The notes below the pieces were generated by a model. That model ran no database searches. It was not told where the DNA came from and was given only the letters and a program-made list of their open reading frames with translations. From assembly GCF_963676685.1 (NCBI RefSeq), contig NC_092344.1, positions 109,430,001-109,494,000 of the forward strand: 64,000 nt of DNA, given 5' to 3'. Of this stretch, positions 21,999 through 59,356 are shown one piece after another; positions within the stretch are counted from its first letter, which is position 1, and each line of letters starts with the position of its first letter. Source of the stretch: Mytilus edulis (Eukaryota). Made by a program: the position numbers and the translations under genes.

Positions 21999-22264
21999 GT
22001 ACACTTTTGTGCATACAACAGAGGAGTTAACTTAAATTCATCTTCAAGCAGTGTAAGTCAAGGAAATAGAAAAAAAATTGTCTAGATAAGATGTTTAATA
22101 GATCATAACTCATCCATACAGACTTTCGTAACGCCACAGATTTATAAAACATACTTGAAAAATCTTACAAAAAGAGAAAATAAAAAAATACATATTCTTG
22201 GTTAGATGGAACAAAAACAGCGTCCTTTCTATTCATCACTGTTTAATTGTGTTATTTTTTGCAG

Positions 22265-25460: not shown

Positions 25461-27751
25461 CGTAGCGACAATGACGCGGAGATACCAAATTTTATAAGTC
25501 AATTCCATTAAAAACATTCGTATAACTATCCTTTATACGTAGAAAAATTTTTTTTAATCCACTGACAACGTTGGTTACGTTTCCTATGATAATAATGCTT
25601 TAGTCGTTATCATTGGTTTCCATTGGATTTAAACCAAATATGCCTGAATGTTTATTTGTCACTAAACCTATGTATTCTCAGCTATCCGTAGGTCCTTGGA
25701 TTTGATGTGTGCTATACTTCTATAAAAAAGAAAAGAAATCACTGCTCAAGTGTAATAACAAAAGACAAATACGGTTTCATCTGTGTCATCTAAGTTTTAC
25801 CTGTCCTTGGGATAAAAACATATTCATCTTCAAGCTAAATGAGGGCAACAGTAGACTACAGATGTTTAATAGTCATACATCGATTAATCGAAAACAAATC
25901 CGGTTCCAGGTTAAAACAAAAATATCGAAAAAAATAAGATTTTATATTATAATTATGCCTTATATTTTGAATTACATTTAGTATTTGACAACAAGGGTCA
26001 GTTGATAAAAATGGTTTCGGCTTTCCAATTGTAAAATTTCCATATTTTATGTAGCAAGATTCCAGTAACGCCTGTACCGGGAGTATACATATCCCAGTTG
26101 ATGTAATATTCAAGTCGTTGGGTTTCCTATCCTATTTATTTGATAGAGGGTTACTGCTAACAATGAAGCAATGATATACGGATTCCAAATGGTATAATTT
26201 AAGTTATCCTTTCAAACGTTATACGGGACCTTGGTGGCCAAGTTATCTATGAAGTTTATCTACTGTATAACTAGCCTGTCAACACTTACGTTGTGTGTTC
26301 AAACACAGCACACTTAAGGTACTTTTTATTTGATTATGATTGACAGTTTTCTGTCGGGGGTCGATGGAACTCACTGGACACGCGAGATTCCTCTGACAAT
26401 AAAAAGGGATCGTCACGATAAAAAGCAAAATCACAAAAATGCTGTGTAACACAACGACAATCAACCTAGCAATAAAACAATTAAAGTTTTCCGCACGCCA
26501 TCACGATGTTCTTTTGCCGTTATGAAATATCTGACCAAAGACATGTTATCTTCTTATCCTCTCACTTCCAAGATAAAATCATCTGTTGCCGACAACATAT
26601 TACCGTAGCGACAATGACGCGGAGATACCAAATTTTATTAGTCAATTCCATTAAAAACATTCGTATACTTATCCTTTATACGTAGAAAACATTTTTTTAA
26701 TCCACTGACAACGTTGGTTACGTTTCCTATGATAATAATGCTTTAGTCGTTATCATTGGTTTCCATTGGATTTAAACCAAATATGCCTGAATGTTTATTT
26801 GTCACTAAACCTATGTATTCTCAGCTATCCGTAGGTCCTTGGATTTGATGTGTGCTATACTTCTATAAAAAAGAAAAGAAATCACTGCTCAAGTGTAATA
26901 ACAAAAGACAAATACGGTTTCATCTGTGTCATCTAAGTTTTACCTGTCCTTGGGATAAAAACATATTCATCTTCAAGCTAAATGAGGGCAACAGTAGACT
27001 ACAGATGTTTAATAGTCATACATACATCGATTAATCGAAAACAAATCCGGTTCCAGGTTAAAACAAAAATATCGAAAAAAATAAGATTTTATATTATAAT
27101 TATGCCTTATATTTTGAATTACATTTAGTATTTGACAACAAGGGTCAGTTGATAAAAATGGTTTCGGCTTTCCAATTGTAAAATTTCCATATTTTATGTA
27201 GCAAGATTCCAGTAACGCCTGTACCGGGAGTATAAATATCCCAGTTGATGTAATATTCAAGTCGTTGGGTTTCCTATCCTATTTATTTGATAGAGGGTTA
27301 CTGCTAACAATGAAGCAATTGATATACGGATTCCAAATGGTATAATTTAAGTTATCCTTTCAAACGTTATACGGGACCTTGGTGGCCAAGTTATCTATGA
27401 GGTGTATCTACTGTAAAACTAGCCTGTCAACACTTACGTTGTGTGTTCAAACACAGCACACTTAAGGTACTTTTTATTTGATTATGATTGACAGTTTTCT
27501 GTCGGGGGTCGATGGAACTCACTGGACACGCGTGATTCCTTGCACAATAAAAAGGGATCGTCACGATAAAAAACAAAATCACAAAAATGCTGTGTAACAC
27601 AACGACAATCAACCAAGCAATAAAACAATTAAAGTTTTCCGCACGCCATCACGATGTTCTTTTGCCGTTATGAAATATCTGATCAAAGACATGTTAACTT
27701 CTTATCCTCTCACTTTCAAGATAAAATCATCTGTTGCCGACAACATATTAC
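25461..27751. repeat. Recent direct tandem duplication of about 1.14 kb (25461-26603 and 26604-27751)
   Basis: Both units start CGTAGCGACAATGACGCGGAG and end GACAACATATTAC, with few differences. The ORF track shows paired near-identical peptides. Confidence 0.97.
26225..26470 (+). mobile_element. Degenerate tRNA-derived SINE (V-SINE-like); duplicate copy at about 27373-27620
   Basis: A-box-like GGTGGCCAAGTTATCTA, B-box-like GTGTTCAAACAC, and a central GGTCGATGG...ATTCCTCTGACAATAAAA block. Confidence 0.5.
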
Positions 27752-30515: not shown

Positions 30516-31348
30516 GTTCTAAACCATCATTGTTAACTTATTTAGATGTGTTTATATCTGTTCTGAACTGCTTTTTTGTTCATGTAATTTTTTTGTATCC
30601 TTTGATCAAGATGACATTTGAACAAAAATACACTTTCTCTGCACAGGACTTTAAGTTATCAATGCTAGTTCTTTTTTTTTTTTTTTATATCATTGCATAT
30701 TTTGCAACACCAGTTTGGACAAAGGGAATATAGACTACAGTTGGTGATAATTGTATAGTGTTTCAAATGTCGTTGTCTATAATATGAACTAAATTCAATG
30801 ATGCAAAAACAAGAAACAAAAAAAAAGGAAACAATAACAATCTGTTTACTATGTATGTTTATTGTTCTGGATATACATAATAAATTGACAAACTTGAATT
30901 AATTCTCATATATATAAAACCTTTTTTTACTATTCAAAATTTTGCTTTTGGATGCGGGTTTGATTATGAATTGCTTCAAGCCAACTGTTAACCGAATGTA
31001 GTTGTTTATAATCTAACCACCAGCGAAGTAGTTCGTTTTTATGCGGTTAGAGAATAAATTTGCTATTCTTGTGCATCTTGCCATTGCATTTATCATTTAC
31101 ATACTACTTATCAATGACTGATTTCGCACTATTTATGACATGGTGAATAAGTTTTTTGCATGTTTTGACCGCAATGCATGGTACTATATGGTTTGATAAA
31201 AAGTAAGTGAATGATAATCTTAAATCTGAAAATAGGTCAATCTCAAAACAGTTTATAATCGTTAAAAGTATAGTATAGCGTTACGCTCTGTCATGATTAC
31301 TTAACCTTGCATATATACTAACACAATACCTCATTTAATTTGCTACAG

Positions 31349-32102
31349 GAACCAGTGCAATATCAACCTACTGCTGATAACAATAATGTGACACGGTGCA
31401 CAATTGAAATGAAGACTATAGTTAGACAAAACAGTAACACTAGTACAGATACTTACAATAGTTGTCTGACTCAACCACCGAATAGTCCTCTTAACAAATC
31501 GCCAGCAAGCAAGGCCAATATTTTATGTAGTCCCACATGCAAGACATTGTGTGGGAAAATTTCTTCAAATGCTCAACATAATTTATATATAAATCCTATG
31601 GATGACTCCGATTCTGGTATGGAAACTATAAATTCCGAATTAAATGACCTTACGGGTATTTGTGGTAAAAGTACATTCGAGAAAAAAGACTCTGAGCAGC
31701 CACTAGTTGTAAATGCATTTTCCGATCCGCCAATTAGCCAATCGAACCAAGTGATACAAAAATTGAATGAAGGTTTCACCACAACATGGCAGCTATATCC
31801 AAATCCCCAGCAAGAAGATGTTAGGCCTGAAATTAAACCGCCTAGCACTGTTCCACTTGGGAATCCGAAAAGGTCGAGCCTTAAGAGACACAAATCAGAG
31901 ACCAATGAAAAACATCCTCATTTTAGTGATATCAAAGAACGCAGCTATTCATCAACAGACAATCTACACTCTGAGTGTACATCTTCAAAAAACAAAAGTA
32001 TTAAATTTAGGAAAGCTGTATCTTTAGCTAGCAGACTTCATTCTAGTCCTTCAACAGGAAGAAAACTTGCAAATTATCACCTAATCGCAAATCCACAATC
32101 AG
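31349..32102 (+). CDS. Shab: Kv2/Shab exon: cytoplasmic tail with PRC-like motif
   Basis: Acceptor TTTGCTACAG|GAA is phase 0, matching the previous donor. Long Ser/Pro-rich ORF containing STDTYNSCLT. Donor TCAG|GTAAAC at 32103 (phase 1). Confidence 0.85.
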
Positions 32103-34364
32103 GTAAACACATTGTTGTCGTAAATCTTCATATTACTTTTTCATATTTTTCTGTCTGTTTTTTGTAGACTAGACAAGCACAAAAATGTAAGAGACGATTG
32201 ATTCTCTTCAAAAAGGGACAATACATTTTGCTCATTTCTTTTTAAATATAGCAAACTACAATAAGCACTATCTTTGACAAGCAAGATAAACTTAATGTTT
32301 CCTGTAAAAACAGTGAGGCAACCAGTATATTTGTTAGTCGTTCTATTTAAGAGGCAATTTTTTCTGCTTACAAAAACACAATTCGCAAGAAACAACAGAT
32401 GTTTCTCATTTTAATCCCCTGGATACAATTTGTTGTTAATATATAAGACGAGTCTTCACCATGTAAATCCAACCAGAAAGGGTGGTTTGACAGGAAATCT
32501 TTATCTTTGTAGCAAAATTGTTAACCTTTTAAAAAAAATATGAAAAACCCGTACTCTAAAGAATACACGATAAAAATCTAAAAAAAAGATTATAGTAGGA
32601 ATGCGTGTTGGTGACAGTCCTGTATATGCTGTGTGTTATTATTTCCTGCACTTTATATATATAGACTAGCTTGCACACTGAGATAGATAGTTTGCACATT
32701 ATTTTGTACGTTGTTTAGACACGTTTTGGAAAACACTCATAAATTTTAAACCTATTTGCATGCTGAATTATTTTGTCTTTCAGACGAAACGTTTCTCCTT
32801 TACTGAGTGAAGAATTCCAATGCCGATGAAAAAGACAGATTTCAGGTGCGATACATTGGTGTGACCTGTGCTGCATATAAAATCCACAATTTACCCATCA
32901 TCATCAACTTCCGCTTTAATTAGCTTTTACCTGGCTTTTGGTCCTATTTAGTTCGTTCCATGTTTTATGTTCTTTGTTTTATCTTCCTTTTCACTCTGAT
33001 GGTATAATGTTTATTTTTGATATTTATTTAAACTTCAATTTAATATTGCATATATTATGACTTGTTTGCAAGTTGCAAGTGGTTTTTTTTTTTATACATT
33101 TTTGTAAATTTTGTTTAAATATACTAGCTTACAACTTTAATTTATTCCAAACATTCATGGTATATATTAGAGAGATTATAATATGATAAATTAGTTTTCA
33201 TTTCATCCATAAAAAAGAAACGTCATAATTTTCTAGAAATACAGCAACAATTTAAAGTAACTAATGTTAAGTTTGTGATAAGAATTTGATACATAAATCT
33301 ATATCAACTAAGTATTTTTCAGTCCCTTTATACAATATGTCAAACATTCGGTGTCTTGACTCTCGCTGCTACCTCCATGTATCCCGCTTATTACTTGGTC
33401 ACACCAGTGTTTGCATATTCCTGAAATCCTTGTTTCTTTCTTTGTCTCAGTCTTAGTTCATTATGCTTTTGCTTTTGTTGCAATAATTTTGCACTTACTT
33501 TCTCTGCGATGCCATGGATATGAAATAACGTTTGAAAACATGCTTTTTGTACATTACTATGGATAAAGAGTAAAGTTTGCAGACTTTCTTTTTGAGTGAT
33601 ATTATTAAGTTATTCCTGTTTAAAAGAAGTATTACCAGATTGATGTCAACTTTTCAGCAAACGTGAGTTGGTCTCCACTTCGTTTAATATTTGATTTGGT
33701 TGTTGTTTTCATATATTTTTGCACGACATGTTTCAATTCTTATAGACATAAAAAAATGTAGTATGAGTGCCAATGAGAGAACTCTCTATCCAAGTCAAAA
33801 CTTGTAAACGTAAACAATTATACGTCAGGTACGGCATTCAACATGACGCATTGGCTGACACCGAACAGCAATCTATAAAGGGCCCAAACATAATTAGTGT
33901 TAAACCATTCAAACAGGACAACCAACGGTATAATCTGTATTAAAAAAAAAGAGAAATGGTTTGTATAGTGAAAACATCAATAAAATAGTTGATGCTTATA
34001 ACATAAAATATTTAGAAAAATTATAAAAGCTGTTGCGAATGCATTCACTTGGAACATTCGAATACTGACTACTATTGACTTCGAAACATTAATAAAATCT
34101 TTAACAAAAAGATCTCCAAAGACATTATTTAAACTGTGTTAAAACGTACCAAAATGAGCATTTACTGTTACAAAACTTGCTAGAAAAAATAGATTAATAT
34201 AGCACAATCGATATGATTTCAAATGTTGGAATTTGCTATAAATATCTTAATGTGAAGTGCATTAGATGTTGAATTGAAATTGAACTGCATTAGATGAACT
34301 GCCTTAGATGTTTTGTATTTGGTTATATTGAGGCTTAAGACCCATTTCATTTTTTTATTTTCAG

Positions 34365-35062
34365 GAACATTAGATATGGTGGGCAGAGAGACAAATACTA
34401 AAACAAGAAGCTGCAGTAGCTCTCCATTATTTGAACAGCCACCGACAAAGAAAAAATCAATTTTGAAAAAGGATGACCTTCAAAATAATTTTCGTTCGAC
34501 AGACAAATCGACGACAAACGATGATGACGTTTTTCTTCCTGACAATAATGTCAATTTTCAACAAACACATTCTAATATATTTTCTGAATTAAATCAGATT
34601 CCAGTTAAAGATGGCAATGACAACAGTGGAAAGTATTTGGCGAGTCCTAGTTCTCAAATATCAACAGAATTCACTGGAAGTCAGAGCATCGGAGATTTAG
34701 AATTCAGTGACAGTATGGCAAATCAACATAAATTATCAAATTGGCAGTGTGATGGTCAATCGTGTCAGAACGATACAAGTCCATCGGATAATTTAGATGT
34801 AGACGAAAGTATATTAGGCTCAAATTCTTGTGATCATTCTCCTTCTGAAATGAGTTTTTCTTCTCATAATTTTAACAGGTTATCTCCTCTTGACAATGAA
34901 AACCTGGATGCAAAATCAAATGCTGACCAAAGGGATTTTATATATTCCAACTCTAATCAAAGTACCGTAGTACCTATAGATGCTTTAATTAACAATCTCA
35001 GTAGACAGCATTCTGGAGATAGTGACAAGGACCAATATACGTCTGCGAATGCAAGTGGGTGA
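34365..35062 (+). CDS. Shab: Kv2/Shab terminal coding exon (disordered Ser/Asp/Asn-rich tail)
   Basis: Acceptor TTTTATTTTCAG|GA is phase 1, matching the previous donor. Open to TGA at 35060-35062. Confidence 0.82.
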
Positions 35063-38000
35063 CGGAATGTGTGTACTAGAAATAGGTACATTATCTTAAC
35101 CAAAAATTTATATAACGACATAACATAAGTAAACATAAAATCACTTAAGATGTATGCATATTACATAACAATACATGTTATTCAAGGTAACTTCAAAGAA
35201 TCAAATATAATTGTTGATTGCAGGTGATATATATTGAAGAATTTAAGTTGTTTCTGTTTATTTCTCGCCGAACGAAGCAATGTAGTATTCTTTATTCTAG
35301 AATTCAAATAGACAAACACAGAGGTTACGATAGTCGGAATGCAATATACAGTAGACCACGTACGAAGAGAGTGAGTGGGGATTTTGTCAGGTCTTGTCTA
35401 CATTTACATCAAGTTAAAAGAGGCACTCTCATGAACATGGTTAACGATTGATTGACAGATGGTTTGTTTGTTTGTAAACATCCAGCTGCAAATTTACGAA
35501 ATTTCTTCCAATGAGTTATATATAGTTGGTCATTCGCTCTACTGTTACATGTATTCAATACGCTTGCATGATATGCCATACAAATATTCTTGTTTCATAG
35601 AATAAAACGCTGTGTCGAGATTTGAACGTGCTACACACGAGTTACACAGTTGACAGCAGGCATTGTTATCAGAGCTCAGGAGGACCAAATTTAAGTCTGT
35701 ATTTAATTCAAAACTGTTGTGATAATTTTTAATTCACTGTAGCCTGGCAGCTTTCATTTCACAAATTTCAATAACTTATTTATATTGATAATCTTTTGGA
35801 ATTCCTTAGTTCAGAAAACAGGAAAACCTTAATATTAGAGTTAAAGGGCACATCAACATGAAAGATAATTATTTGAAAGCCAAATTTGTTTATCCTAACA
35901 CTCAAGTAGAATTTAGTGTTCTGTTGACGAGTATTTATGCTGGCAGAGGAGACAATTAAACGAATCTGTGTATTGTTGATAAACTTTCATTTTCTTTTGC
36001 TATATCGACACATATTGGCTGATATTTTAGTTCGTAAACCCTATTTTTTACATTTGTAGATTTAAGAAAATAACCTTGGAATTTGGAAATAAAGACGGAA
36101 AAGAGTACTTGAAACGCAGAAAGAAGCATTTGAAAATCTGTGACTGAGAATGGTCACAAGCATTTGACTATAGAATAGTTATAGGATGATTCAGCTCAGA
36201 ATATGAGGTGTTTGATCCCATTGTCTCTGACCGTCTGCTTGTTACGTCATTATATTTTCTGACAGTATCATACCATTTAGATATCAATAATTTCTTTAAG
36301 ATCTGTTCACAAATCCTTATTAGGTCAGAAAATACAAAAATTAGCATTTGTATAAGTCAGTTTCCAAAGTCATTAAGGTTCATTAATGTTCAATAAGGTT
36401 ACACTACTGAGTCTTACTCTGAAACTTATCACTGTTCTTTATGAAGCGAGAACACTTTGATTTCATTGTAAATATAAAAAAACATAAATTAAACATGTAT
36501 TAACTAATCCTTTTCATTACAAGTTGAGCAATGCAAACTTTTTAATATTGGCGTAATCGTCTAATGATGAAAATGTGAAATATTGTTTTGGTACTTGATT
36601 TTTAGTCATTAGATTGTTATTGTTATTGCCAAAAATATTTACCCGATATGGCATTTTGCATTGGGTAAAGTATGACCTTTTCTTTTTTGGAGAAAGTGGC
36701 TGCTGATGATTTTTCTTACACGTTATAAACGTCATTTTATTCTAGCAGTAAAGTTGGTAAAGTAATTGCATTTTTCAAGTATTTTCATAAAGTAAATTAT
36801 TACTTTGGATATCGCACACGACTGATTAGAAATATTTTCGAAATGCCAGTTTATGGACCTTAAAATTTTCTTCCACGGTTTGTAATTATGTATTGATATA
36901 AAATATATTTTATGAAATGTGAAGTTGATATAAAGAATACACTAGAAGTCTATTGATAAATTATAATGGATCTTATTTATTTTGAAGAGTAATAATTTAA
37001 GTCTATTGATAAATTATAATGGATCTTTTTCATTTGAAGAATGATAATTTTGAGATAACAGTGAAAATCAAATAACAGACAATGAATTGAACAATCGTTT
37101 AGATACAGTGTGTATGAATTCATCATACTTAAATATTAATAAAATGTCCCAAACCTTTATAGATTACTCATTTCAATTGTGCATGAAGATTGTTTTTTCT
37201 TCCTGAAAGCTGGAGAATAGTGATATTCTAGTACGATGATTACCATAATTATCAGAAGAATAATACCCATTTAGTTGTGCTTTATTGAACATACTTTTGT
37301 GAACCTTTAATCTTTAAAAACCACTGAATAGTAAAATTACTATTTTTCATGTTGAATTTTTATGAAGCCTCCTACACCGCTATTTATATATCTGACATTA
37401 TTATTCTTGTGCAATTTGCATAATTTACATTAGATAAATATGGAGATTGTAATGACAGTTTATTATAAATTCTACATAAATGTCATCGGTTTCAATTTTT
37501 GTATCTTTTAAGGAGAACAGTATGGCACGCTGTATTTATATTTATTCAACTTAAATGTCTTTTTACTTTATTAGATATCTTTACTTTTAGAAGATATCTT
37601 TAAAAATATTTGTAAGATATCTAAAATGTTCGTAAGGTTATAGATTAAGGCGACAGTAGTTCATCGATGTTCAAATATCGTAAATCGATTAAGAAGAAGC
37701 AAAACTTGAAACGCATTAACTCCAAGATTTTTTCTAGATATATTAGATATTTTATAGGATTTGTGTTTATTAGATATATATCTTAAATATTTAATGATCT
37801 ATCTTTTAAATTTTAAAATATATCTCATATAAAATCACAGGAGGTTGAAATCCTATCAATGAGGGTCTATAAATATGTCAACTCGACTATCACAGTAGAG
37901 CTTCTCTCGTAGAGAGAAGCGACAGGAATGCAACGCGTTTTTCATTTTTTTTTAACTTTTTTGAATCTGGGACTTTTTGATCGGAATAAACGCTATGCGT

Positions 38001-38197
38001 CAACTAATAAACATATTGTTACTTCAATTAACCACTTAAACTACTTTGCAGGTCACTAATTATTAATTTACAGCTTCTTTTTACGTCCTGACAGAATCCT
38101 TGTCATTATTTTTGGCCATGGGAGGAAGTCGAGGAAATTCCAATCAGCAGTGAATATCGATCGACTATCTCATGAATAAACATTAGAACATTGAACT

Positions 38198-38240
38198 TTT
38201 GAACTTTTGAACCATCATGAACTTCCGGTTTCTTTCCCGC
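38198..38240 (+). promoter_or_regulatory. Putative cell-cycle promoter module (2x CHR TTTGAA, ETS ACTTCCGG, E2F TTTCCCGC)
   Basis: Motifs at 38198, 38206, 38221 and 38233, 30-75 bp upstream of the ATG at 38272. A further E2F site TTTGGCGC lies at 38438. Confidence 0.45.
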
Positions 38241-38271
38241 AAAATTATTTCTTTCTACCAGAGCTGTCAAA

Positions 38272-38369
38272 ATGGACAATAGACGAGAATTTTCGTTCGC
38301 CAAAGCAAGAGAGGGCCATAATTTGCTAATTACAGGCATGTGTGGAACAGGGAAGACAAGTATTGTAAA
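38272..38369 (+). pseudogene. First exon of a Pif1-like (SF1B) DNA helicase; downstream exons not found
   Basis: MDNRREFSFAKAREGHNLLITGMCGTGKTSIVK: Walker A GxxGxGKT preceded by GHNLLITG, as in Pif1 motif I. Good start context (CAAAATGG), candidate donor AA|GTATGA at 38370. Confidence 0.7.
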
Positions 38370-39849
38370 GTATGAGTATATTTCATCAGCAATTAGTAAA
38401 AATGCGTGATAAAAGTAAAACATAAAAGCTCTGAAAATTTGGCGCAAGTTATTTTTGGTCGTATGCCCTGTTTGCCTCGGGGTCCTTGAGGCATAAAGAT
38501 TGTTCGAGAGATTGTTACTTCATCTCAACATGAAAAAGCATAAATAAAACAGAAAAAATATAATATCTCGAGTTTTATTCTATTTTATTCACGTATGAAT
38601 TAAAATTATTGATAAAATTTGATGAAAAAAAATTGGCGCATTTTTCTGATAGTATGCCATGAATGAGGATTGGATGTATTCTTGGCATGGTGGTCCTCTT
38701 ATTATAAAGATTGTGAATTAAATTAAGGCACTGATCATTCATCTTTTGAATGAAAGTTGGGTGTTTTTTTTTTTTTGAAAAAATGTTTGATAATTTCTGA
38801 AATTTGTTAAAAAAAAAAGTTTTACGGGAGGGGATATAAAAACTGAACATTAAACCCGGTACAAATTTATCAAGACATTGAACCCGTGCTAGGATACAAT
38901 TTAAAAAAAGGCAGGACAGGATCAAAGTTTTGAGTGAAAAGCAGGAGGAGCAGCTGGACAAATCAATCCAGGATTAAGTTATAAAAAAGAGACGGGACCA
39001 AATATCACACATATAGTGAAAAAAATTAAAAATGTTAGACAGAGATTGCAACTAGAAAAAGGCAGCCCAAAATATAGTCCCCCCCCCCCCCCCCCTCCCC
39101 CTACTAAAATTAAATCATAGCCTAATTCTAAACTATAAACAGCCATAACCAAAATACCAAACAAACTGTAACTTCTAAGTATGTGTGACTTGTCTTGTGT
39201 CTTGCAAGTCAAGAAAATGATTTGTTTCAATAAAAAAAATCTATGTCCCATGCATATTTTCATTGGTCTTATGCATTGAGAAATTTTGACCGGTCACTTA
39301 AACAGTTAGAAGTACAAAAAAAATACATTATGTTTCAGAAAAATATTTGTTGTTTCTGTATGCTATAAAACATTAGTTTGTTCCTTTAAAACATAAAAAA
39401 GTTTGTTCTGAGAAAATAAAGGTTTCCCACCCCTCTAAAGATGAATGGTTGGTGCCTTTTTAAAAACTTGATATCACACATATAATCACCCAATGCACCC
39501 TAAAAATTATAAATTTGTTTTACAAACTATATGATAGAAATGTGTCCTTTATATTGTGTTCAGTACCCAGCTTGGCTTTTATCTTTTATTATCCTTTTGC
39601 CTTGATCAGCAGAGTATACATGTGGCAAGTGGATCTTTTCCTATATACAGGTAAATCTAAATCTTCACATATTTGAGTCAGGCTAATGTCTCCTTCTCCA
39701 TCATTATGTCATCCCAGACTTTTTTATTTTTTTTATTTTTTTGGGTCCGAATTCAGTATGCCTGAAGTTAGAATATTAAAATTTAAATATAACGTATACA
39801 TAAATCCGGACATCCTGGCATTTCAATTTTTCAGGTGGTTATGCCAATA

Positions 39850-40070
39850 GGAATCCTCTAGATTTTTCCTCTATTTGAAGGTAATGACTGAATATTTTTA
39901 TTGCTGATTATTTTTTAACCGATGGATATAGTATGAAAAAAATCAAAATGGAGATATTATATAGTGTCTTTAACAACATTAAAAGAGTAAAATTGTGATA
40001 TTTAACTGGTGTCGATACATATCAATTAAATTCATTTGCATTGAAGTCTATGAAAAGTCTAGAGGATTCC
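39850..40070. mobile_element. Small MITE with TA flanks
   Basis: AATAGGAATCCTCTAGATTTTTC (39846) is the inverted match of GAAAAGTCTAGAGGATTCCTATT (ends 40074), one mismatch. Confidence 0.8.
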
Positions 40071-40710
40071 TATTAGTTTCATCTCTCAACATTGTTTACA
40101 TAACAAAAATGCCCGAGCAAAAATGCTAATCATTGATTGGTCAGTTATAAGTTGTGATGTCACTGCAAATTTATGTATGTATAAAAAAGAGGATGTGGTG
40201 TGATTGCCAATGAGACAACTCTTCACCAGAGACCAAATGACACAAAAAATAATGGCCTGATTAATTTACAAAAAAATTAACAAAAAACAAATATGTAACT
40301 CAACAACGAATTACAGGCTCCTAACTTGGGACAGGCACAAACATACATAATGTGGCGGCTTAACCATGTTAGCGGCATCCTAACCCTCCCCTAACTTGAG
40401 ACAGTGGTAACAGTACAACATACGAACGAACTATAAAAATCAGTATTGTTTGAAAACCCATGGACAACCTCACAAGACAACGTCCAGGGATGTCAACAAA
40501 AACCTTGGTATCATTTACAGTACACTGAAAAACTATCCAAAAACTATAAAATATGTATAACATAATTATTTTCATAACTAACTATTACAGGAAGAAGTGA
40601 AATATTTTCATCACAAGAACACAGGATGTTAACTGGATTTTTTTTCAGTTAAGTATATATATATATTAATCAGTAACTAAAATAGAAAATCAAAAATGCC
40701 CCAGATTTAA

Positions 40711-41417
40711 CAGTCAGGGGTATGACTCAAACAAGTGATTTCATTATCGCTTATTTCAGTGATTTTCAAATTTCAGTAATCACCTATTTAAGTGATTTTG
40801 GTGTTTTCTTTGATCTTCAAATGCTGATTTCACTAATTTTCCATGAAATGGCAATTTTTTCTGAAATTTGTCTACATAGATCAATTATCTCTTTATCTTG
40901 ATATATCAATTTTATCAGTGCGCTTGGGCAGCAAGTTAGTGCGCTGAAGCTTTTAAAAGAACCCTTGGGACTATTTCTGTCTTCTATATACTATATTTCT
41001 AGAGTTTACTACTCTACCAATAACATAAAGGTCAACACATTTATGTAATCTGCTTTGTTTTCTTTATAATTAGTATGATTTACTTCAAGGTTTTGACCGT
41101 ATCTACAAATTATCCCAGTTTAAGCATAATCCAAATAAATTTTAAAAACTGACAAAATAATTTAGCAAAAGAGCATTTTTGCATGTATTCAGTTGTATTT
41201 TCAATAGAATAGTTTTTTTAACCCTATGTAAATCTAGATTGTGGGTAAATTATTGAGAAAATGTTATAATAAGTGATTTAATGTTTACATCTCAAATCAC
41301 TTATGCAAGTGATTTTAAAAAGTGTTTCTAATTTTATAAACATTTTTCATTTTTCAATAGTGCAATCACTTTAATAGGTGATCCTGAAATCACTTGTTTA
41401 AGTAGTACCCCTGACTG
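40711..41417. mobile_element. MITE, CAG...CTG termini, 5-bp TSD TTTAA
   Basis: CAGTCAGGGGTATGACTCAAACAAGTGATTTCA versus TGAAATCACTTGTTTAAGTAGTACCCCTGACTG. TTTAA on both sides; internal AGTGATTT repeats. Confidence 0.85.
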
Positions 41418-42166
41418 TTTAATGTTTAGTCAATAAATTCAATGTTTTAAATAATATCAAACGTACCAGGCTTTTAATGTTAACCAGACACCTGTTTTGT
41501 GTAATCAACACTTATCAGTGACTCAAATCGAAATATTAGTTAGGCAAAAAAAAAATCTAGAGCATAAGACAAAATGATATTTGATATAAGTGCCAATAAG
41601 ACAATGTAATAGTTATGTAATTTATGACACAGGTATTGACTCACTCCAAAGAGCAAGCTATAATGGCCAAGGCATTGCCAGTGTAAAACAATTTAAAAGG
41701 AAAACCAACACATACAAAACCGGAAAAACTGATGACCAATAAATGATTTTTTCGTGGTAAAGTCAATATTCCAGATACAATAAGAACTAGACTTGCCATT
41801 GCGAGCAATAGCAGATGTCACCCCGTTCCCCCATTGCCAGGCCATCTGGCCGTTTCCATGACAACGGCAGCCATTTTGAAATTTCCAAAAGTCAAAAAAC
41901 ATATCTTTATATGCTAAATCAACTGTCTATAAAGTTTCATAAAATTTGGAGAATTTTGAAAATTTTCGAGTTTTTTGCCATTTCTATGGTAATAATAATA
42001 AGCTAATAAGAATAGATCTTTTATATTTGTCGTTTGGAATGATTGTAAGGTACACACGTCCAACTTTCAGGACATTAAGTTTTACATCATTAAGAATTGC
42101 ATTTTACAGTCAATACATTGTAGTACTTTTATTATTTCAGTGAAATATTTGTTTATTTCATTACAG

Positions 42167-42842
42167 GAGCACAGGAGCACTGGACATTTATTGATTCTTT
42201 CCATAGCAACACCACCAACAGCAGCAAAAAAGTTCAAGCATTTCAAGAATGGAATGTTCTGTCCAAACAAACATGTCTATCACACCTTCAAGAGCTGATA
42301 TTGGAATCATTATTAGTAGAATGGAAAACAGGGATAAAATCTAGCAAAAGGCCCAGTCGCACATGGCCCCTAGATTTTGAGCTGGGCTACTAAATTACCT
42401 GGAAAATATACTGACTCAAAGACAGACTGAAATACAGACATTGACTGAAGAAATGAATGAGGACAAAGAAAAGATGGGAGCAGATTACAAACAAAAGCTT
42501 GCTAATATAGAATCCATACTGAAGAAAGAAATGGCAAATCAGAATGATTTAATGAATGAATTAAAACAAAATAAAGAAATAAAGAGTCAATGAGCTTCAG
42601 TCTGCTCTTCGTGAAAAAAGAACAAGCTATAAAACTTCTCTAAAAACCAGTAAAAGTGCTTGGGACTATGAACTCATTAATTTTAGGGAAGAGTATAGTG
42701 TGAAAATGTCAGAAATTGAAAGAGAAAAAAACAGACAAATAGAGGATGTAAAGCAAAGAAGACTGAACATGGAAGAATCATGTCATATTCTGGAAGACAA
42801 ATGGAAACATCCTTGGCTGAAAAAAATAGTTTAAAGCAACAG
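42167..42842 (+). pseudogene. Frameshifted exon of a coiled-coil protein (cargo in the TIR element)
   Basis: Acceptor TTTCATTACAG, donor CAG|GTAACA. Heptad-like segments in shifting frames: LENILTQRQTEIQTLTEEMNEDKEKM..., VNELQSALREK..., KMSEIEREKNRQIEDVKQRR..., METSLAEKNSLKQQ. Confidence 0.6.
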
Positions 42843-43374
42843 GTAACAATTTAACTAGATAAAAGTGATCTTGTTCATGTATTTTTTTGCATGTTAACTT
42901 TTTATACATTGTGATTTGGATGGAGAAGTGTCTCATTGGCACGCATACCACATCTTATTTATATTTGAATACTTTCATCAAACTTTTATTGAAAAAGTCA
43001 CCTTTAAAAAAAAAATAGTGATAAAAACATTAAAAAAAAAACAATTGAGACATGATGACAAAGCTATACATTTTGTATGAAGCCATTCTTAGATTGCGTG
43101 CACGATCAACGGTTTGACAAGCCTATTATATTGCTCAAAGACCATTCAATTCTTATAATTACATATTTTTGCTAGGATGAAGGAAAAAACAATCTCTATC
43201 ATTTTTTTGTATATATTTACCTGTACATATAAAGCATGTGCTATCATGGGTGTTACATATCATTGTGCTATGAAGAATGACGTGAGATTGTTGTTAGCCA
43301 ATCAAAATAACAGATTTATATGTTGAAATATACTAGTACTGTAATGTAATTATTTGGATTAAAAGGGTTTTTTT

Positions 43375-44060
43375 TTTACCTGCGTCACCAACGGTGAAAG
43401 CAGGTCTAGTAACCGCTCGACTCCGTCCGTCATTCCGTCCGTCCGAAAGACTTGCATATCAACTTTAGTCAAAGATTTCTTGGCTTCTATGAAAGGGAAT
43501 GATTTTATATTTGGTCCAGAGCTTGATCATGTTGAGTTGTAAAGTGTAAGCAATTTTTAGATCTGCGATGCAGCCACTTCCTGTTTGCTGATAGTTTGAA
43601 ATTTAGCTACTCAGTGTACAAGGAAAATTTTTCGTCAAAGTTTTCTTGGCTTCTATGAAAGGGAATGATTTTATATTTGGTCCAGAGCTTGATCATGTTG
43701 AGTTGTAGTGTGTAAGCAATTTTAAGATTTGCGGTGCAGCCACTTCCTGTTTGCCGATAGTTTGAAATTTAGCTGCTCAATGTACAAGGAAAATTTTTCG
43801 TCAAAGTTTTCTTGGCTTCTATGAAAGGGAATGATTTTATATTTGGAACAGAGCTTGACTATGTTGAGTTGTAGGGTGTAAGAAATTTAAAGATCTGTGG
43901 TGCAGCCACTTCCTGTTTGCCGAAAGTTTGAAATTTAGCCACTTATTGTACAAGGAAAATTTTTAGACAAAATTTTTTGGTTTCTATTGAAGGAATTGTT
44001 TTAGATTTTCTGTAGAGCAAATATATGCAGTGACGCAGGTCCAGACCAGTATTGGTCTTG
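43375..44060 (-). mobile_element. Helentron-associated (HINE/DINE-1/pearl-like) element with about 3.3 x 166-bp internal tandem repeats
   Basis: Terminal hairpin ACCTGCGTCACC-AAC-GGTGAAAGCAGGT, (TCCG)n microsatellite, units at 43468, 43634, 43800 and 43966, subterminal IR GTGACGCAGGT, inserted at a T-run. Confidence 0.8.
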
Positions 44061-44399
44061 AATGCTGGATACTATCCATGCATGTCTGTGTCCACACAGT
44101 AAATTAATTATAAATTTCCGGATCTGCATTATTCATCATACGTAGCTGTTATAGTTTTAAATGATAAAAGCAAACAGTTTTACAATTTTTTTTCTAATTA
44201 TTCATTTGACAATATATAGTTTTCTTATTATTTCAGTGAGACGTTTCAATATTTCATCACATGAACACTGGGACATCTATAGAAACAAGTGGGACATGCA
44301 GTTTATTGATATTCTAAATAAAAAAAAATTGCTTCCAATTTCATTTCAAGCTTTTGTATTTGACCTTTAGAATGAGAAGATTTATATTCAATTCTTTAC

Positions 44400-44768
44400 A
44401 CCGCCTCGGTGATGTAATGGTTAGTGTGGTCGCCTCGAGTGCGGTAGGTTGTGGGTTCCACCCTCGGTGGGGTCAAACCAAAGACTTGAAAATTGGTATT
44501 TGCTGCTTCTTCGCCAAGCACGCGGCAATAAGGAGTTAGAGCAAAGACTGTTCGGCCCGGACTGTTCAGTCAGAATAATGTGTCTGGGTAAGTGACATAT
44601 ATTCCTGCGAACTGTTACCTTGTGAGCTAGCATGTTAAAAATCCAGGTCAGTGTGTCGGTCGAGTACAAAGCAGGGTTAATATTCATTAATCATTATCAT
44701 GTTCTCATCCTGAATATGCATCTGACTTGCCACTGGACGTTAAACAACCATCCATCCATCCATCCATC
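44400..44768 (+). mobile_element. tRNA-derived SINE (MetaSINE-like core) with (CCAT)n tail
   Basis: A box GGTGATGTAATGGTTAG, B-box-like GGGTTCCACCC, core GGTCAAACCAAAGACTTGAAAATTGGTATTTGCTGCTTC, tail GGACGTTAAACAA(CCAT)n. Confidence 0.8.
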
Positions 44769-45727
44769 AATTACTTATTGTTTGATTGCTGGTAACCCTT
44801 AATTTAACTGCTACTGTAATTTCCTTCCACTGTAGTGTAATTGTAGTGTAGTTTGTAATTGAAAACAGACAACCATTTTGACTGACATATTGCTATCCAC
44901 ATAAGTTGCTTTAAAAATCTTCCCTTCTATAGACTGATCAGAATCGTATTTAGAACATCTAATCGTATAAATAAGAAGATGTGGTATGAGTGCCAATGAG
45001 ACAACGCTCCATCAAAGTCACAATATATAAAAAGTTGATAATTATAGGTCAAAGTACAGCCTTCAGCCTTCACCACAGAGTTAAGTTTCTGTTAAAATTA
45101 TACCCCATGACGCCATCAACCAACATGATGAAAATAGAGTTATTTTTTTCAGTTTCATGCAGTTTTCAATTGATATTAAGTACATAATTTTATAATGATA
45201 AAAGAAAGGTAAAACCGACTTGAAAGGGACAATCAAACTTGAATGTAGAAAGGAAACTTACATAAACATGGATAGATATGTATTTCATTTTTTTTCTGCT
45301 TACAGACCCTTTGCATATAAGCTTATTCCATACAGAGATTAATAATTCAATTAAGTGTGTCCTCTATTTGAATTGAAAATAACAGGTTCTCTGGTTATTG
45401 CAGTGGTCAGTCTGTCTGTTGACCATTTTCAGTGTTGAGACTACAGAATTTAAGATTTGGTCCATTTTCAATAGTGGCCTTTTCTAAATCTTGCTTGTAA
45501 CAGAGTTGCAGGAGATTCATATTGGTTTTGGTTTAAAAAAACTTACAGATTATACTCTCAAGATTATTTTTGTGGTATGCTATTAATGAGAGACATGTAG
45601 ATAATTTGCATTGACTCTTATACCAGTGGTGCTATTTATATTTATAGGCTTTCAAATCTTATTCTATTTTGATATTGGTATAGAAAGCCTCATAATTAAA
45701 AAGTTGGTCTATATACAAGGTCATAGG

Positions 45728-45885
45728 CATAGGCGGATCCAGGGGGGCCCCCCCCTTTCGTGGGAAAAATTTGGTTGATTATATAGGGAATCACTGAAGC
45801 ATGACTGGAGCGGGCTCCCCCTTAGGTCAGTCAGCGGGCCCCCCCCCCCCCCCCCCCCTTATGAAAAGTTCTAGATCTGCCACTG
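45728..45885. mobile_element. 158-bp G/C-run MITE, 5-bp TSD ATAGG
   Basis: CATAGGCGGATCCAG versus CTAGATCTGCCACTG; ATAGG at 45723-45727 and 45886-45890. Confidence 0.75.
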
Positions 45886-47458
45886 ATAGGTCAACCCTTG
45901 ATTTGTAGTGTACACCATATATTGTTACATGAATGGTGTGATACTTTATGAAAGTCATTCTGCATACATGGTCATAGACATATGTCAACATTTTATTTAT
46001 ATTATGCTTTATATCTTGGTGAATAAATATAATCTGGTAAGTAATTCAAAGGTTTGGTCTTCTAACAAGGTCGCAGAAATATTGTATGTTTTGACTATTT
46101 GTATAGTTCACAAGAATTGTTGCATGCATGCTTCATACGAGAACTAAGCTACAATTGTGGTCAAAAGGCAGATTATTTAATCTAATACATTGGTTTGAGT
46201 TGAGTTTACCCGAAAGATATCTTGTATACTTGCAGCTGTTAATTATATTTATAAACTGGTAATTTAAACTAGTAAACAGAATACCCAATAAAAATCTAAT
46301 CTGGTGATTAGTTAAAAAGTTTTGAATGATCATGGACACAGGCCCATCTTCTTATCACTAGTCTATTACAGATTATTATGGAAGACAGTCGTCCTACAAT
46401 ATTTAAAATTGTTGACGAGCAAGCACACTACAATATATCTGTTTATGTTATGACCAAGCATTCATGCATGTGGTGGTATGTCAAAAGAAACTGCTAAAAA
46501 CTGCCAAGTATTTAGACCAAAAATTGAGTTTACTGCTACATACCAAATAATAGGGTAGGTGGGTAGAAGATCAAATATTTTTACTATTGCTTCCTTATTA
46601 TTAATATATAGAAATAGTTTATAAAAAAAATGAAATTCTGTTTCTATGCAAACAAGAGGTATCCTTAATTTATTTGATTCAAAGTATGTTTTTTTTTCCA
46701 TAAGATGAAATGACTAACTTGCAAATTCATAACCTAAGGTTATTTGTCAATAAAAAAGCAAAAGTAGGTAAGGTGAAAGTACATAAGTACATATCCACTC
46801 AGATGTGGGTGGGGTTTACAGAATGGAGAATAAGGAGTGGGGGCTAGAATAAAAAAAAATACCTGCAAATATTACAGAACAGTCAAAAGTATATCTGAAA
46901 GCAATTTCCAGACAACAGTAAGCAAGTAATTATTACATAATAGCCATTGTTTTTATACAAATAAAGTTTGATGTGTGAAAAAATTAAAGAATACATCATT
47001 TCAAGATTTAACAGACATAAATATAAATTTGATTAGACTTCATGAACTAATGAAATAAGGCAAAATAAAATTTATGTGTGCATTCAGTTACATCTAAAAA
47101 AAGAAAGTTACATGAAGAGAATTTTTAAAGCCTTTTTTACATTGGGTCTATAAGAACAACATTCTTACTTTAACGGTGCTTAATGAAAAATGACAGAAAA
47201 ATCTGTAGGGTAGGCAATTAGTAATTTTAAGACTAAAAAGTATAGGGTAACTGAAAACTCACCCCATATATTTTTATTTGTCCTAACCAAAATGAATGAT
47301 TATTATTGCACCATCTGTAATATGTATTTAATTAATTATTAATTATTTTTCTAAAACCATAAATCATTAGTTGTTGAAATCTTTTCAATTTTTTTTGACA
47401 CATCCATTGATAAAATTTCAAGAACCTGGGCATATTTTTTTCCAAAGTACTAATATAT

Positions 47459-47756
47459 GAGGGGGAGGACAGGGGTAAGGGAGACAGGGAGAAAGGGGGT
47501 AGGAGAAAGGAGAAAGGGGGTGGGAGAAAGGAGAAAGGGGGTAGGAGAAAGGAGAGGAAGACTGGGAGAAAGGAGAAAAAGTTGGAGAAAGGAGAAAAAA
47601 TGAAATATCTCTCCTTTTAAAAAAATTTCTAATATTTCAAGAAAAAATATCTCAAAAGGAGATGTTTTATTTTAATGGGAGAAAGGAGAACGGGGGTAGG
47701 AGAAAGGAGAAGAGGGGTGGGAGAAGGGAGAAGGGTACCCCCCTGTCCTCCCCCTC
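47459..47756. mobile_element. Sola2-like MITE (GAG...CTC, 4-bp TSD ATAT) with polypurine GGAGAAA array
   Basis: TIR GAGGGGGAGGACAGGGG / CCCCTGTCCTCCCCCTC with ATAT flanks. Confidence 0.75.
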
Positions 47757-50700
47757 ATATATTTTTCCAAATAATCATTTAGTTTACATCCCCTTTCTAC
47801 AAATATTTCTAACATAAGGACCCCTTCATTTTTTTAAAAGTGCAAATCAAGCTATCCACTGCTGGAACTGATACTGAACATAAATAAAAAATTACAAATT
47901 TCTTATTTTGGTCTGTGCTCCCCCTTTTTTGTTTTCACTTAGAAATTCTAATTAAGGATATAATTGGGCAGGTTACAGGTTTAAGGTACTGATGAAAACG
48001 TGTATTACCATATAACTGTATCTATTTGCTTTGACATGATCACTTGAAACAGTAATAGAAAGAAGAATTCTTCAGATTATTGTGAAATTTAAATTTCCCG
48101 CATGTAAACTTTTTACACAGAAGAGTTGTTTCCCTTGAACTTCCAAGCGAACAATTAAATTTAATGAAGGGACGGATTTTTTAATAGTTTGACATCATAA
48201 TACTTTAGGAATAATTATGAGAAAGTACTTGATAAATTTGTATGATTTATTTCGACTGTTTGTTTAATGAAATACTATACCTCATTTACATATATTCACT
48301 GCTGATTGGAATTTCCTCGACTTCCTCCCATGGCCAAAAATAATGACAAGGATTCTGTCAGGACGTAAAAAGAAGCTGTAAATTAATAATTAGTGACCTG
48401 CAAAGTAGTTTAAGTGGTTAATTGAAGTAACAATATGTTTATTAGTTGACGCATAGCGTTTATTCCGATCAAAAAGTCCCAGATTCAAAAAAGTTAAAAA
48501 AAATTGAAAAACGCGTTGCATTCCTGTCGCTTCTCTCTACGAGAGAAGCTCTACTGTGATAGTCGAGTTGACATATTTATAGACCCTCATTGATAGGATT
48601 TCAACCTCCTGTGATAAAATACAGGCTAGAAAATATGTAATAACAAAAGAAAAATATCGTTTCAAATATGATCAAAGTCTTCAGGAAAGGAGACATCTTA
48701 TTTAGATTAATATATATCTTTGATATATTTTCGAATTATTGACAAAGATTTTTGATGAATTTAGACAATATCTAGAAGATTTTATAAGATGTCGAATAAA
48801 GAATTGTTTTAAGATATTTTTTCTTTTATAGAATACTAGTATATAATTTAAAAGTATCTCATATAATATTTAGTATATCTTATAAAGAAAAGTTATATGA
48901 CCAGTAAAGTTATAAAGATGTATCTTTTAGAATATAAGTCATATTAAATGTTTAATAAATATGAGTATAGCGTGCCAGTGACTATACGGTGCTAAGTTAG
49001 TGTGCTTAGGAATACTTGTTTTATTGAACACCGTTATACTACCATGCCTTTATTCGTATTAAGAAAACTAGTCCCAGTTAAAGAGGAAATTACTACAATA
49101 TCTAGGATATTATAGCAGTATTTATGTATAATTTCATAAAACTATTGTTGACATTACCATTACTGATAAAAATACATTTTATATTACGATCATTTGTTAC
49201 GATCTAATGCCTGCTCTTAAATCCTGGATAAAACAATAGAACATTGAACACTTGCCTGTAGTCTGATTGTGATTTTTTTAGCTGTGATATTATAAATAAA
49301 ACCAAATATATGATGGTTTATGAAAATAGGATGGATTATTATAAGTTTGTTTTGAACAAGTGATATGAAAAGTTGTTGCTGAAAGTTGCCAGCTGTTATA
49401 TATATATGTTATAAAATATGATTTTCCTTTACAATTCTACGACGATGGTCGATTTCAATTCCTACACATTTGCCTTATTTTTTATTTTATTTTTCATAAA
49501 TTTTAATCAACTAGGTTTTAATATTTTGAATAGCACAGTTTGTTAGATATTTGTTTTGTTTGTTAATTTTAAAAGATATGATGCGTTTTACTTTGTTTAT
49601 TTTATTTTAGTTCATTTTACTTTTTTTATTCGACCTCGTCTCGTTACAATTTGTTTTTATTGTTATGTGATGCTACCACCTTTTTTACAATAGTCTCTTG
49701 CACTACTGTTGTTATCTTGTATATAAATGTTTTTGTCTTCCTGTTATATTCCTTGCCATTTCATGATTTTTATAACTTCCTTTCGATGAAAACGTTTTTT
49801 ACACGTACTTCATATGAAATGTAAATCGAGGATATATTAGAAAGAATTACTTCATTACTATTCGGTAAGCATAAGCGAAAACGTTTTATCTATTGAATAG
49901 CGTGTCTTGTTGACGTTGTATACAGTCGTCCTTGTTAAGTTTTATGATGTTAGATACTACAAAACAGGACAGGAAAATTATGTTATTCTCTCCAGTGTAA
50001 TAAAATTCATTAATTTGCATCAGTGTATTTATCTTAATGCGATTCTTACTCGAAAGTAGATCAGATGATCCCAACACCCTACATAGTAGCTATGCAATTA
50101 CTATTTCTCTCTAAGAATAGCTCTCTGCTCAGTCAAACACATTAGGAAGACGAATTCTGTTACTCCTGTTTTTTTTCAAATCTCAACTGATTTGTAAATA
50201 TTTCGATAAAAAAGAATCAAGAATTGTGGTCAATAGATACGCTTGTATAATAATAATGCGTTCTCTATTCGCAACCTGATAAGTTTACTTAAGATATTTA
50301 AATGCGTTTCATTACAATTTAAATCTATTTTACTAACCTTTTGCAAGGCATCATGTAAATTATTCCTGGAAATATTGCAAAATGTTAATTTCTATCAGTA
50401 AGTGTAAATTGAAACTATGAAATATAAAACTCGTTCTAAGAAACATCATATATTTAATATTTGTATAAACTCCTTTGAAATATCGAATTCGTCTAAACTG
50501 GACCATAAAACGGTGATCAAATGCTACCACGTCGGCACATTCGTACAACGCTGAACGATGTATAGATAAGTTAATGTCTATAATTAACGGACAACAATTT
50601 ACTTAACAACTTGGAATCCTTTAAATACAAAGATTTTAATTGTTTTCAAATAAGTAACCATGCTAAACATACTTCTTCACGGCATAATTGGTAAAACAAT

Positions 50701-58270: not shown

Positions 58271-59356
58271 AAAACAAGAATGTGTCCAAAATACACGGAT
58301 GCCCCACTGAATCATTGTCCATGTTCCATGGACCGTGAAATAGGGTAAAAATCTAATTTGGCATTAAAATTAGAAGGATTATACTATAGGGAACATGTGT
58401 TCTAAGTTTCAAGTTGATTTGACTTCAATTTCATCAAAAACTACCTTGACCAAAAACTTTAACCTGAAACTTCCATTTTCATTTTTATGCCCCACCTACG
58501 ATAGTAGAGGGGCATTATGTTTTCTGGTCTGTGCGTCCGTTCGTTCGTCCGTCCGTCCGTCCGTCTGTCCCGCTTCAGGTTAAAGTTTTTGGTCGAGGTA
58601 GTTTTTGATGAAGTTGAAGTCCAATCGACTTCAAACTTGGTACACATGTTCCCTATGATATGATCTTTCTAATTTTAATGCCAAATTAGAGATTATACCC
58701 CAATTTCACGGTCCACTGAACATAGAAAAGGATAGTGCGAGTGGGGCATTCGTGTACTGAGGACACATTCTTGTTTATGTTAAGTGGACCGTGAAATTGG
58801 GGTCAAAAGTCTAATTTGGCTTTAAAATTAGAAAGATCATATCATACGCAAACAAGTGTACTAACTTTCAAGTTGATTGGACTTCAGCTTCATCAAAAAC
58901 TACCTTGACCTGAAACTCCCACTTTCATTTTCTATGTTCAATGGACCGTGAAATTGGGGTCAAAAGTCTAATTTGGGTTTAAAATTAGAAAGATCATATC
59001 ATAAGCAACAAGTGTACCAAGTTATAAGTTGATTGGACTTCAGCTTCATCAGAAACTACCTTGACCAAAAACTTTAACCTGAAACTCCCTCTTTCATTTT
59101 CTATGTCCAATAGACCGTGAAATTGGGGTCAAAAGTATAATTTGGCTTTAAAATTAGAAAGATCATATCATTAGCAACTAGTGTACCAAGTTATAAGTTG
59201 ATTGGACTTCAGATTCATCAAAAACTACCTTGACCAAAAACTTTAACCTGAAGCAGGACGAACGAACGAACGAACGAACGGACGGACGGACGGACGAACG
59301 GAGCCACAGACCAGAAAACATAATGCCCCTCTATTATCGTAGGTGGGGCATAAAAA
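58271..59356 (+). mobile_element. Helentron-associated element with four ~169-bp units and a (GAAC/GGAC)n microsatellite
   Basis: 5' AACAAGAATGTGTCC...ATGCCCCAC, units at 58330, 58786, 58943 and 59112, 3' hairpin ATGCCCCTCTA...TAGGTGGGGCAT followed by an A-run. Confidence 0.88.
58482..58775 (-). mobile_element. Single-unit copy of the same Helentron-associated family, inserted inverted into the larger copy
   Basis: TTTTTATGCCCCACCTACG...GGACACATTCTTGTT is a complete reverse-complement copy placed in the T-run of unit 1. Confidence 0.88.

Follow-up and report, generated by a model that had tools for sequence, protein, structure and literature searches.

A young, polymorphic deletion derivative of an apparently undescribed two-gene lineage of P-superfamily transposons in Mytilus edulis

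Introduction

A stretch of 64,000 nucleotides of the Mytilus edulis genome (NCBI RefSeq assembly GCF_963676685.1, contig NC_092344.1, positions 109,430,001 to 109,494,000 of the forward strand; this whole stretch is the window, and its positions are counted from its first letter) contains a 10,778-bp element (37836-48613) bounded by long terminal inverted repeats (TIRs). Termini of the P superfamily follow the rule CANRG, and its transposases use GTP as a cofactor and cleave element ends with a 17-nt stagger. A preliminary description, made from the window alone, placed the element in this superfamily as a recently inserted, empty foldback element related to Galileo. The question raised by the locus is which kind of transposon such an element derives from. 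We found that it is a non-autonomous P-superfamily derivative, formed by internal deletion of an element encoding a transposase and a Pif1 helicase. On balance, it is probably a young, polymorphic, deleted copy of a two-gene P lineage in which the helicase protein bears the C-terminal domain of the transposase, an enzyme that would then likely have two subunits.

Results

Ends and target site duplications

The TIRs (322 bp each) differ at a single site (TIR position 110, T vs. A) and the termini are CACAG...CTGTG, as the preliminary description had reported. ATAAAAT is present on both flanks and had been proposed as a 7-bp target site duplication (TSD). In the window copy alone the TSD is ambiguous: it starts and ends with AT, and 5-, 3- or 2-bp readings also fit. 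Other copies were more informative. A 7-bp TSD was found in 8/9 independent long relatives with both ends located, the copy at C11:46.88M being the only one without a TSD (the C12 copy repeats the C9 site and was not counted separately). Among paired miniature copies (101-255 bp; 24 loci tabulated rather than all 57 tip matches), the TSD was 7 bp in 12/14, 8 bp in one, and 2 bp in one, and every copy had its own internal junction. The predominance of 7 bp rules out the CMC/EnSpm reading with a 2-bp TSD that had been left as an alternative. The symmetrized target consensus was GTWWWAC (21 TSDs). The TIR is a multi-locus sequence, with 55 genome matches listed and 57 exact matches of the 30-nt tip.

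For three long subfamily-B ends, no partner end was found within about 19.7 kb. One subfamily-B copy (L033, C11:46.877-46.885M) has intact ends and unmatched flanks and is possibly a recombinant of two copies. E2F-like motifs were seen near 5/8 of the element ends checked and near none in the C5 family; they are not relied on here.

Polymorphism and age

In a contig of 2,505 nt from sequencing run X1, with a depth like that of the flank, a single ATAAAAT lies between the left and right flanks, which is the empty site. Right-junction reads were available from runs X1, X3, X5, and X7, and the letters show the empty site in X1 only. The X3 contig departs at the same right-junction base into 185 non-element letters, consistent with an empty site; X5 and X7 gave no information. 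Because the left flank is a repeat, left-junction reads (runs X1, X2, X3, and X13) did not settle the site. Depth at the element ends in these runs was approximately 3-times to 4-times that of the flank, which is not read as copy number.

Over 6,355 aligned bases, 7 substitutions separate the window copy from its sister copy on C11, and the X1 right flank shows 16 differences in about 1,790, with the qualification that X1 may represent a sister species. The copies are thus younger than the flank variation. The element is a young, polymorphic insertion, absent at the same spot in another sample, and an assembly artifact is excluded. Both the youth and the polymorphism had been anticipated in the preliminary description.

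Sister copies and retained exons

Two long sister elements, on C9 (46,897 bp) and C12 (44,068 bp), have the same tip as the window element, and about 8.7 kb of their interior matches it at 99%. The third sister, on C11 (10,077 bp), likewise has this tip and has 99% of the interior in common. At their far end, the C9 and C12 copies carry the Pif1 exons from exon 2 on, including a PHD finger (PIF1/Pif1_2B/PHD domains), and an antisense P-type transposase (PF21787, E 1e-13). The deletion at the junction in the window copy took out the body of the transposase and every helicase exon after the first, and the window and C11 copies are two different internal deletions. The element is therefore non-autonomous, as described, and what had appeared to be an empty foldback is an internally deleted two-gene element. 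The longest stop-to-stop open reading frame (ORF) within it is 137 aa; the earlier statement that it has no long ORF and no transposase holds to that extent, but it overlooked helicase exon 1 and a likely transposase exon 1. The C9 and C12 copies carry both genes, but their transposase is interrupted by a stop and a frameshift. An intact close relative, 89% in the core, is present in another record (P0254).

Helicase exon 1, which begins 115 bp inward of the left TIR, is in phase with helicase exon 2 of the sister elements. It adjoins the TIR at the same position in the C5:82.8M (16.1 kb, TIR 327, 7-bp TSD) and C2:81.1M (11.9 kb, TIR 310, 7-bp TSD) families, both with the order TIR, helicase exon 1, antisense transposase body in intron 1, and helicase exons 2-5. 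Near the opposite TIR of both families is a short ATG exon ending TG/GTAA, the phase of which matches the transposase acceptor. A mini-exon of this form near the TIR was found in 3/3 interleaved families, and in the window its donor fits the acceptor of the transposase body of the sister copies. By chance, such a mini-exon occurred in 0.9% of 3000 random 200-nt window slices, a search made after the sighting. From sequence, the window mini-exon (48037-48009) is likely transposase exon 1.

The C9 and C12 sisters (C9:68.466-68.525M and C12:80.550-80.606M, genome G000) lie inside a duplicated block of >55 kb with 99.8% identity and the same TSD, which may be a segmental duplication, a larger mobile unit or a misplaced haplotype. 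They contain a 17-kb insertion (L038:838 to L039:8160; site equivalent to window 48072-48074) with CAGCC...GGCTG ends and a 3-nt duplication, the junctions of which also occur in runs X3, X5, and X7. It carries a GDSL/SGNH ORF and a nuclease/Cys fragment that we presume to be Academ-like. This XPG/Academ-like ORF was considered as the enzyme of the C9 and C12 elements and rejected, because it sits in the insertion with its own 3-nt duplication. Also nested in the C9 and C12 elements is an open long interspersed nuclear element (LINE; L047:179-6990, minus strand) with an endonuclease-reverse transcriptase ORF of 1,268 codons, a PHD-bearing ORF1, and an extra ORF of 253 codons.

A two-gene lineage

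In the Mytilus genome, 28/38 transposase matches had one of the 45 helicase matches at a distance of 10 kb or less (0.025 expected). For a related element, a 100% identical M. edulis protein exists. The remaining 10 comprised four with helicase remnants, three of a helicase-free sister group, and three without a helicase in the 10 kb fetched. Most families are convergent, with each ORF starting just inside a TIR of 292-606 bp, and have 8-bp TSDs; CACAG termini were present in all helicase-linked families with ends found. The 8.15-kb family had ten matches with open frames of 798 and 1,091 codons, and its seven fetched copies were 99.8-100% identical, six of them with matching 8-bp TSDs; an example with two intact ORFs is at C6:81,435,476-81,443,630.

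Trees of the transposase and the helicase (nine paired families) recovered the same two supported clades. The ratio of nonsynonymous to synonymous divergence (dN/dS) was about 0.20 for the helicase and 0.15 for the transposase in one unsaturated pair, dS being saturated in 5/7 pairs. As judged from these sequences, both genes are under purifying selection and their trees are congruent across families. All 19 helicase-linked or homologous transposases tested separated from three helicase-free ones (100/100, midpoint root).

The pairing was also observed beyond Mytilus. Among metagenome loci, a helicase was beside the transposase in 8/26, and in 8/10 of those of at least 4 kb; in L165 and L169, the transposase is nested antisense in a helicase intron. 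In Tegillarca, the helicase KUTeg_000911 and the transposase KUTeg_000913 have neighboring tags, each on a 138,110-bp contig. Homologs of either protein, taken without genomic context, were found in Pinctada, Pecten, Argopecten, Saccostrea, Mercenaria, Dreissena, Littorina, Priapulus, and Ptychodera, and the helicase tail had 797 representatives at E up to 0.001. Transposases from Tegillarca (P0170, 66% identical) and Saccostrea (P0188) nest among the Mytilus families, which may hint at horizontal transfer.

The motifs of the element helicases are intact. Identity across the helicase domain was 40-63% within the lineage vs. 24-35% to five Helitron helicases of the same genome. The nearest PDB match was cellular Pif1 (E 1e-61), with Helraiser weaker (E 4e-15), and a Pfam scan of two intact element helicases found no Helitron_like_N. 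Inverted dimers of whole helicase-bearing elements occur at L146-L147 (C1:42.977-42.993M) and L124-L085 (C4:2.027-2.048M); the C1 dimer is 15.9 kb long, with one 8-bp TSD around the dimer.

Predicted fold of the transposase

The window copy itself lacks a transposase body, and a relative was modeled instead (75 sequences, predicted local distance difference test [pLDDT] 88). The model matched the fly P transposase (6P5A/6PE2; E 3e-20, Z 35, root-mean-square deviation [rmsd] 3.2, 426 residues), the match being confined to P residues 128-569; the match to Transib/RAG was far weaker (Z 12.6). At the profile level, membership in the P superfamily was recovered at E 1e-8. Together with the 7-bp TSDs, the P fold of the relatives bears out the original placement of the element in this superfamily. 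A PDB search with the single transposase sequence gave no match, and the ESM Atlas gave no usable match.

Model residues 2-78 matched RFX winged helices (Z 8.7, 73/82; Z 7.7, 66/76), and the homolog P0240 carries PF02257. The THAP domain PF05485 was absent from three intact helicase-linked transposases, and none of 44 listed THAP matches fell in a mapped element (coordinates compared by eye). The N-terminus is thus predicted to be an RFX-like winged helix in place of THAP.

C-terminal domain on the helicase protein

The fly transposase has a C-terminal domain on a disordered linker that packs against another subunit (PMC7776569, in the text available). Of 100 transposase homologs with a findable catalytic-E motif, 84 end 16-116 residues past it, and a profile of the C-terminal domain matched none of the 100 (best E 0.11). 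The tail after the helicase was modeled from 81 sequences (pLDDT 80). Its best match among 48,161 chains was P residues 617-734 of 6p5a_B (Z 9.9, rmsd 2.5, 118/118), with PHD fingers next. From these models, the P C-terminal domain is predicted to have been relocated onto the helicase protein.

Helicase-free relatives in the same genome have a short transposase and a second ORF of 352-433 codons with a related domain. Their ends are CAAGG, with a 7-bp TSD in one clear case. That these relatives are already split suggests that the split preceded the gain of the helicase. Helicase-free two-gene P elements were located at L127-L128 and L202-L211, and a 599-codon ORF with SAP, SWIM, and YqaJ domains lies near one of them (L128:7913-9709). 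A weak search for fusions of the helicase-free second ORF into longer proteins gave no match.

Discussion

Alternative explanations

The C-terminal domain is assigned from a single structural alignment, made with a helical model that is itself predicted, and its Z of 9.9 is below the caution level of the tool for helical folds (approximately 13). Foldseek and sequence profiles against the PDB did not recover the link. PF12596 matched 0/6 helicase-linked segments, and the helicase-free ORF only at E 0.4. The profile link to the helicase-free ORFs is E 5e-12 with one such ORF in the alignment and E 0.02-0.035 without it. One 14-kb metagenome locus (L175) has a transposase and no helicase, the splices of both genes and their expression are predicted, and no intact transposase with the ends of the window subfamily is present in the assembly. 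In addition, fly PIF1 matters for long synthesis only without POL32 (10.1101/554550, in the part available). These points count against the reading that we prefer.

In one alternative, the lineage is the same but the helicase is an independent accessory that merely assists repair or replication through a long palindromic element; the transposase would then need neither a partner nor a C-terminal domain, and the similarity in fold would be a coincidence between helical structures. For a helical domain, Z 9.9 is indeed moderate, Foldseek, PDB profile and Pfam searches lack the link, and AcademH and KolobokH have helicases as accessory parts, as far as the available text of PMC10045372 and PMC10799480 goes. 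However, the best of 48,161 chains is precisely the part that is missing from the protein that the neighboring gene matches, and the helicase-free relatives retain a second ORF with a related domain. We regard this accessory role as unlikely, although it is the most serious of the alternatives. Far less credible is the chance capture of a host Pif1 exon by an ordinary foldback derivative of a Galileo-like P element with one gene. The long TIRs, the 7-bp TSD, and a palindromic target near GTANTAC (PMC4168063, in part) resemble Galileo, but the pairing at dozens of loci and in other hosts, the congruent trees, and the apparent purifying selection refute chance capture for the lineage, and no THAP domain was found. 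Membership in Galileo, as originally suggested, is accordingly abandoned: THAP is lacking, there is a second gene, and the transposase is apparently without a C-terminal domain. Three other readings can be dismissed almost entirely: an element of CMC/EnSpm type whose TSD is 2 bp, the remnant of a Helitron, and an artifact of assembly. The CAC ends and a TSD that starts and finishes with AT recall the first, and Pif1 helicases are typical of Helitrons; these readings are refuted by the 7-bp TSDs in other copies and a fold far closer to P than to Transib/RAG, by TIRs and TSDs together with the distance of the element helicases from those of Helitrons, and by the empty site in X1, respectively.

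A possible mechanism

Under the preferred two-subunit interpretation, subunit A would consist of an RFX-like winged helix, a helix-turn-helix (HTH), and an RNase H fold with a GTP-binding insertion, stopping before the C-terminal domain, and subunit B of a Pif1 helicase, a helical domain, the P C-terminal domain, and a PHD finger, as predicted from the models. One long TIR would drive each gene; in the window subfamily, the genes would be interleaved antisense, each body within the first intron of the other. Subunit B might dock on the paired ends via its C-terminal domain, and the 5′-3′ helicase would most likely promote long gap-repair synthesis at the donor break, leading to copy gain of elements of 8-47 kb. 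Alternatively or additionally, the helicase may melt the ends or dismantle the end complex, and the PHD finger may read H3K4-methylated chromatin. Aborted repair after excision would account for deletion derivatives as well as miniature copies, and it is in keeping with the many miniature copies at single sites, each of which has its own junction. In flies, PIF1 supports long synthesis during gap repair after P excision (10.1101/554550, in the part available). The wider proposition, that this is a widespread animal lineage of two-subunit P elements driving their own replicative gap repair, split first and supplied with a helicase later, is in our judgment slightly favored; its hosts would be bivalves, and a gastropod, a priapulid, and a hemichordate also have homologs.

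Comparison with known systems

The lineage resembles the Drosophila P element (6P5A/6PE2) in its fold of HTH, split RNase H, and GTP-binding insertion with DDE motifs, in CANRG-type ends with 7-8 bp TSDs, and in its internal deletion derivatives. It differs in having two genes, an RFX-like winged helix rather than THAP, a C-terminal domain that is predicted to belong to a second protein, the Pif1-PHD one, and TIRs of 292-606 bp compared with 31 bp. The helicases of AcademH and KolobokH are RecQ-like. With Galileo, the lineage shares long TIRs, a 7-bp (sometimes 8-bp) TSD, a similar palindromic target, and many defective copies, whereas Galileo encodes a single transposase, with THAP, and lacks a helicase (the word "helicase" has 0 occurrences in the available part of PMC4168063). 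AcademH and KolobokH are also cut-and-paste transposons encoding a helicase, with TSD length varying by sub-lineage, but they belong to other superfamilies and their helicases are of the DEAD/Helicase_C type rather than a Pif1 of superfamily 1 (SF1) joined in one protein with a PHD and a predicted transposase domain (PMC10045372 and PMC10799480, as far as available). The Helitron RepHel protein likewise combines a DNA transposon with a Pif1-family helicase, but uses a HUH rolling-circle enzyme, and Helitrons have no TIR or TSD (PMC8788227, in part).

The literature searched contained no P transposon with Pif1 and no split P transposase; Repbase, Dfam, and supplements were outside its scope, and prior annotation there is possible. 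No such P element appeared in the available text of PMC8788227, PMC6431247, PMC10045372, or PMC10799480, and the corresponding text of a bivalve transposable element survey (PMC10294476) has 0 occurrences of "helicase" and a curated list without a P family. The lineage is apparently an undescribed variant of the P superfamily, and the window element itself an ordinary-looking derivative.

P elements are the textbook single-gene, THAP-bearing system, and the lineage departs from both properties. Disassembly of the P strand-transfer complex and target repair are stated to be uninvestigated (PMC7776569, in the text available); a natural split enzyme with a tethered helicase would offer a handle on complex disassembly, repair, and copy-number gain, and intact, near-identical copies are on hand for assays. 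Multi-copy "PIF1" annotations in mussels, scallops, and clams would be explained as transposon genes, the RFX winged helix would be added to the DNA-binding modules of transposases, and the lineage would be actively generating multi-kilobase presence/absence variation in mussel genomes.

Features of the window

Table 1 Coordinates of the features of the element and its flanks in the window
Feature	Position	Strand	Basis or remark
Left TSD, ATAAAAT, 7 bp	37829..37835	+	Sequence; single copy at the empty site in run X1
Left TIR, 322 bp, begins CACAGG, private T at TIR position 110	37836..38157	+	
Helicase exon 1 (Pif1-type): ATG, Walker A motif, GT donor 38370, phase 2	38272..38369	+	
Internal deletion junction, 3-nt microhomology	39630..39632	.	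Comparison with C9/C12 and C11 sister copies
Non-coding interior, ~99% common with 44-47 kb sister elements	39633..47458	.	
Tandem array, 166 bp x3.3	43464-44008		Inside non-coding interior, alongside dispersed repeats
Purine-rich insertion, 296 bp, this copy only	47459..47754	.	
Likely transposase exon 1, 29 nt, ATG to phase-2 TG/GTAA donor	48009..48037	-	Inferred from sequence
Right TIR, 322 bp	48292..48613	-	
Right TSD, ATAAAAT	48614..48620	+	

Upstream of the element, exons of a Shab/Kv2-like potassium channel, named from their translations, are present on the plus strand (5293-6333, 22247-23350, 31322-32167, and 34298-35062), and the last long ORF of this gene has its stop about 2.8 kb before the element. 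A tandem duplication of approximately 1.15 kb, 97-100% identical, is located within an intron (25461-27619). A foldback-like repeat at 58287-59356 consists of 169-bp subunits with nested inverted arms and (ACGA)n tracts.

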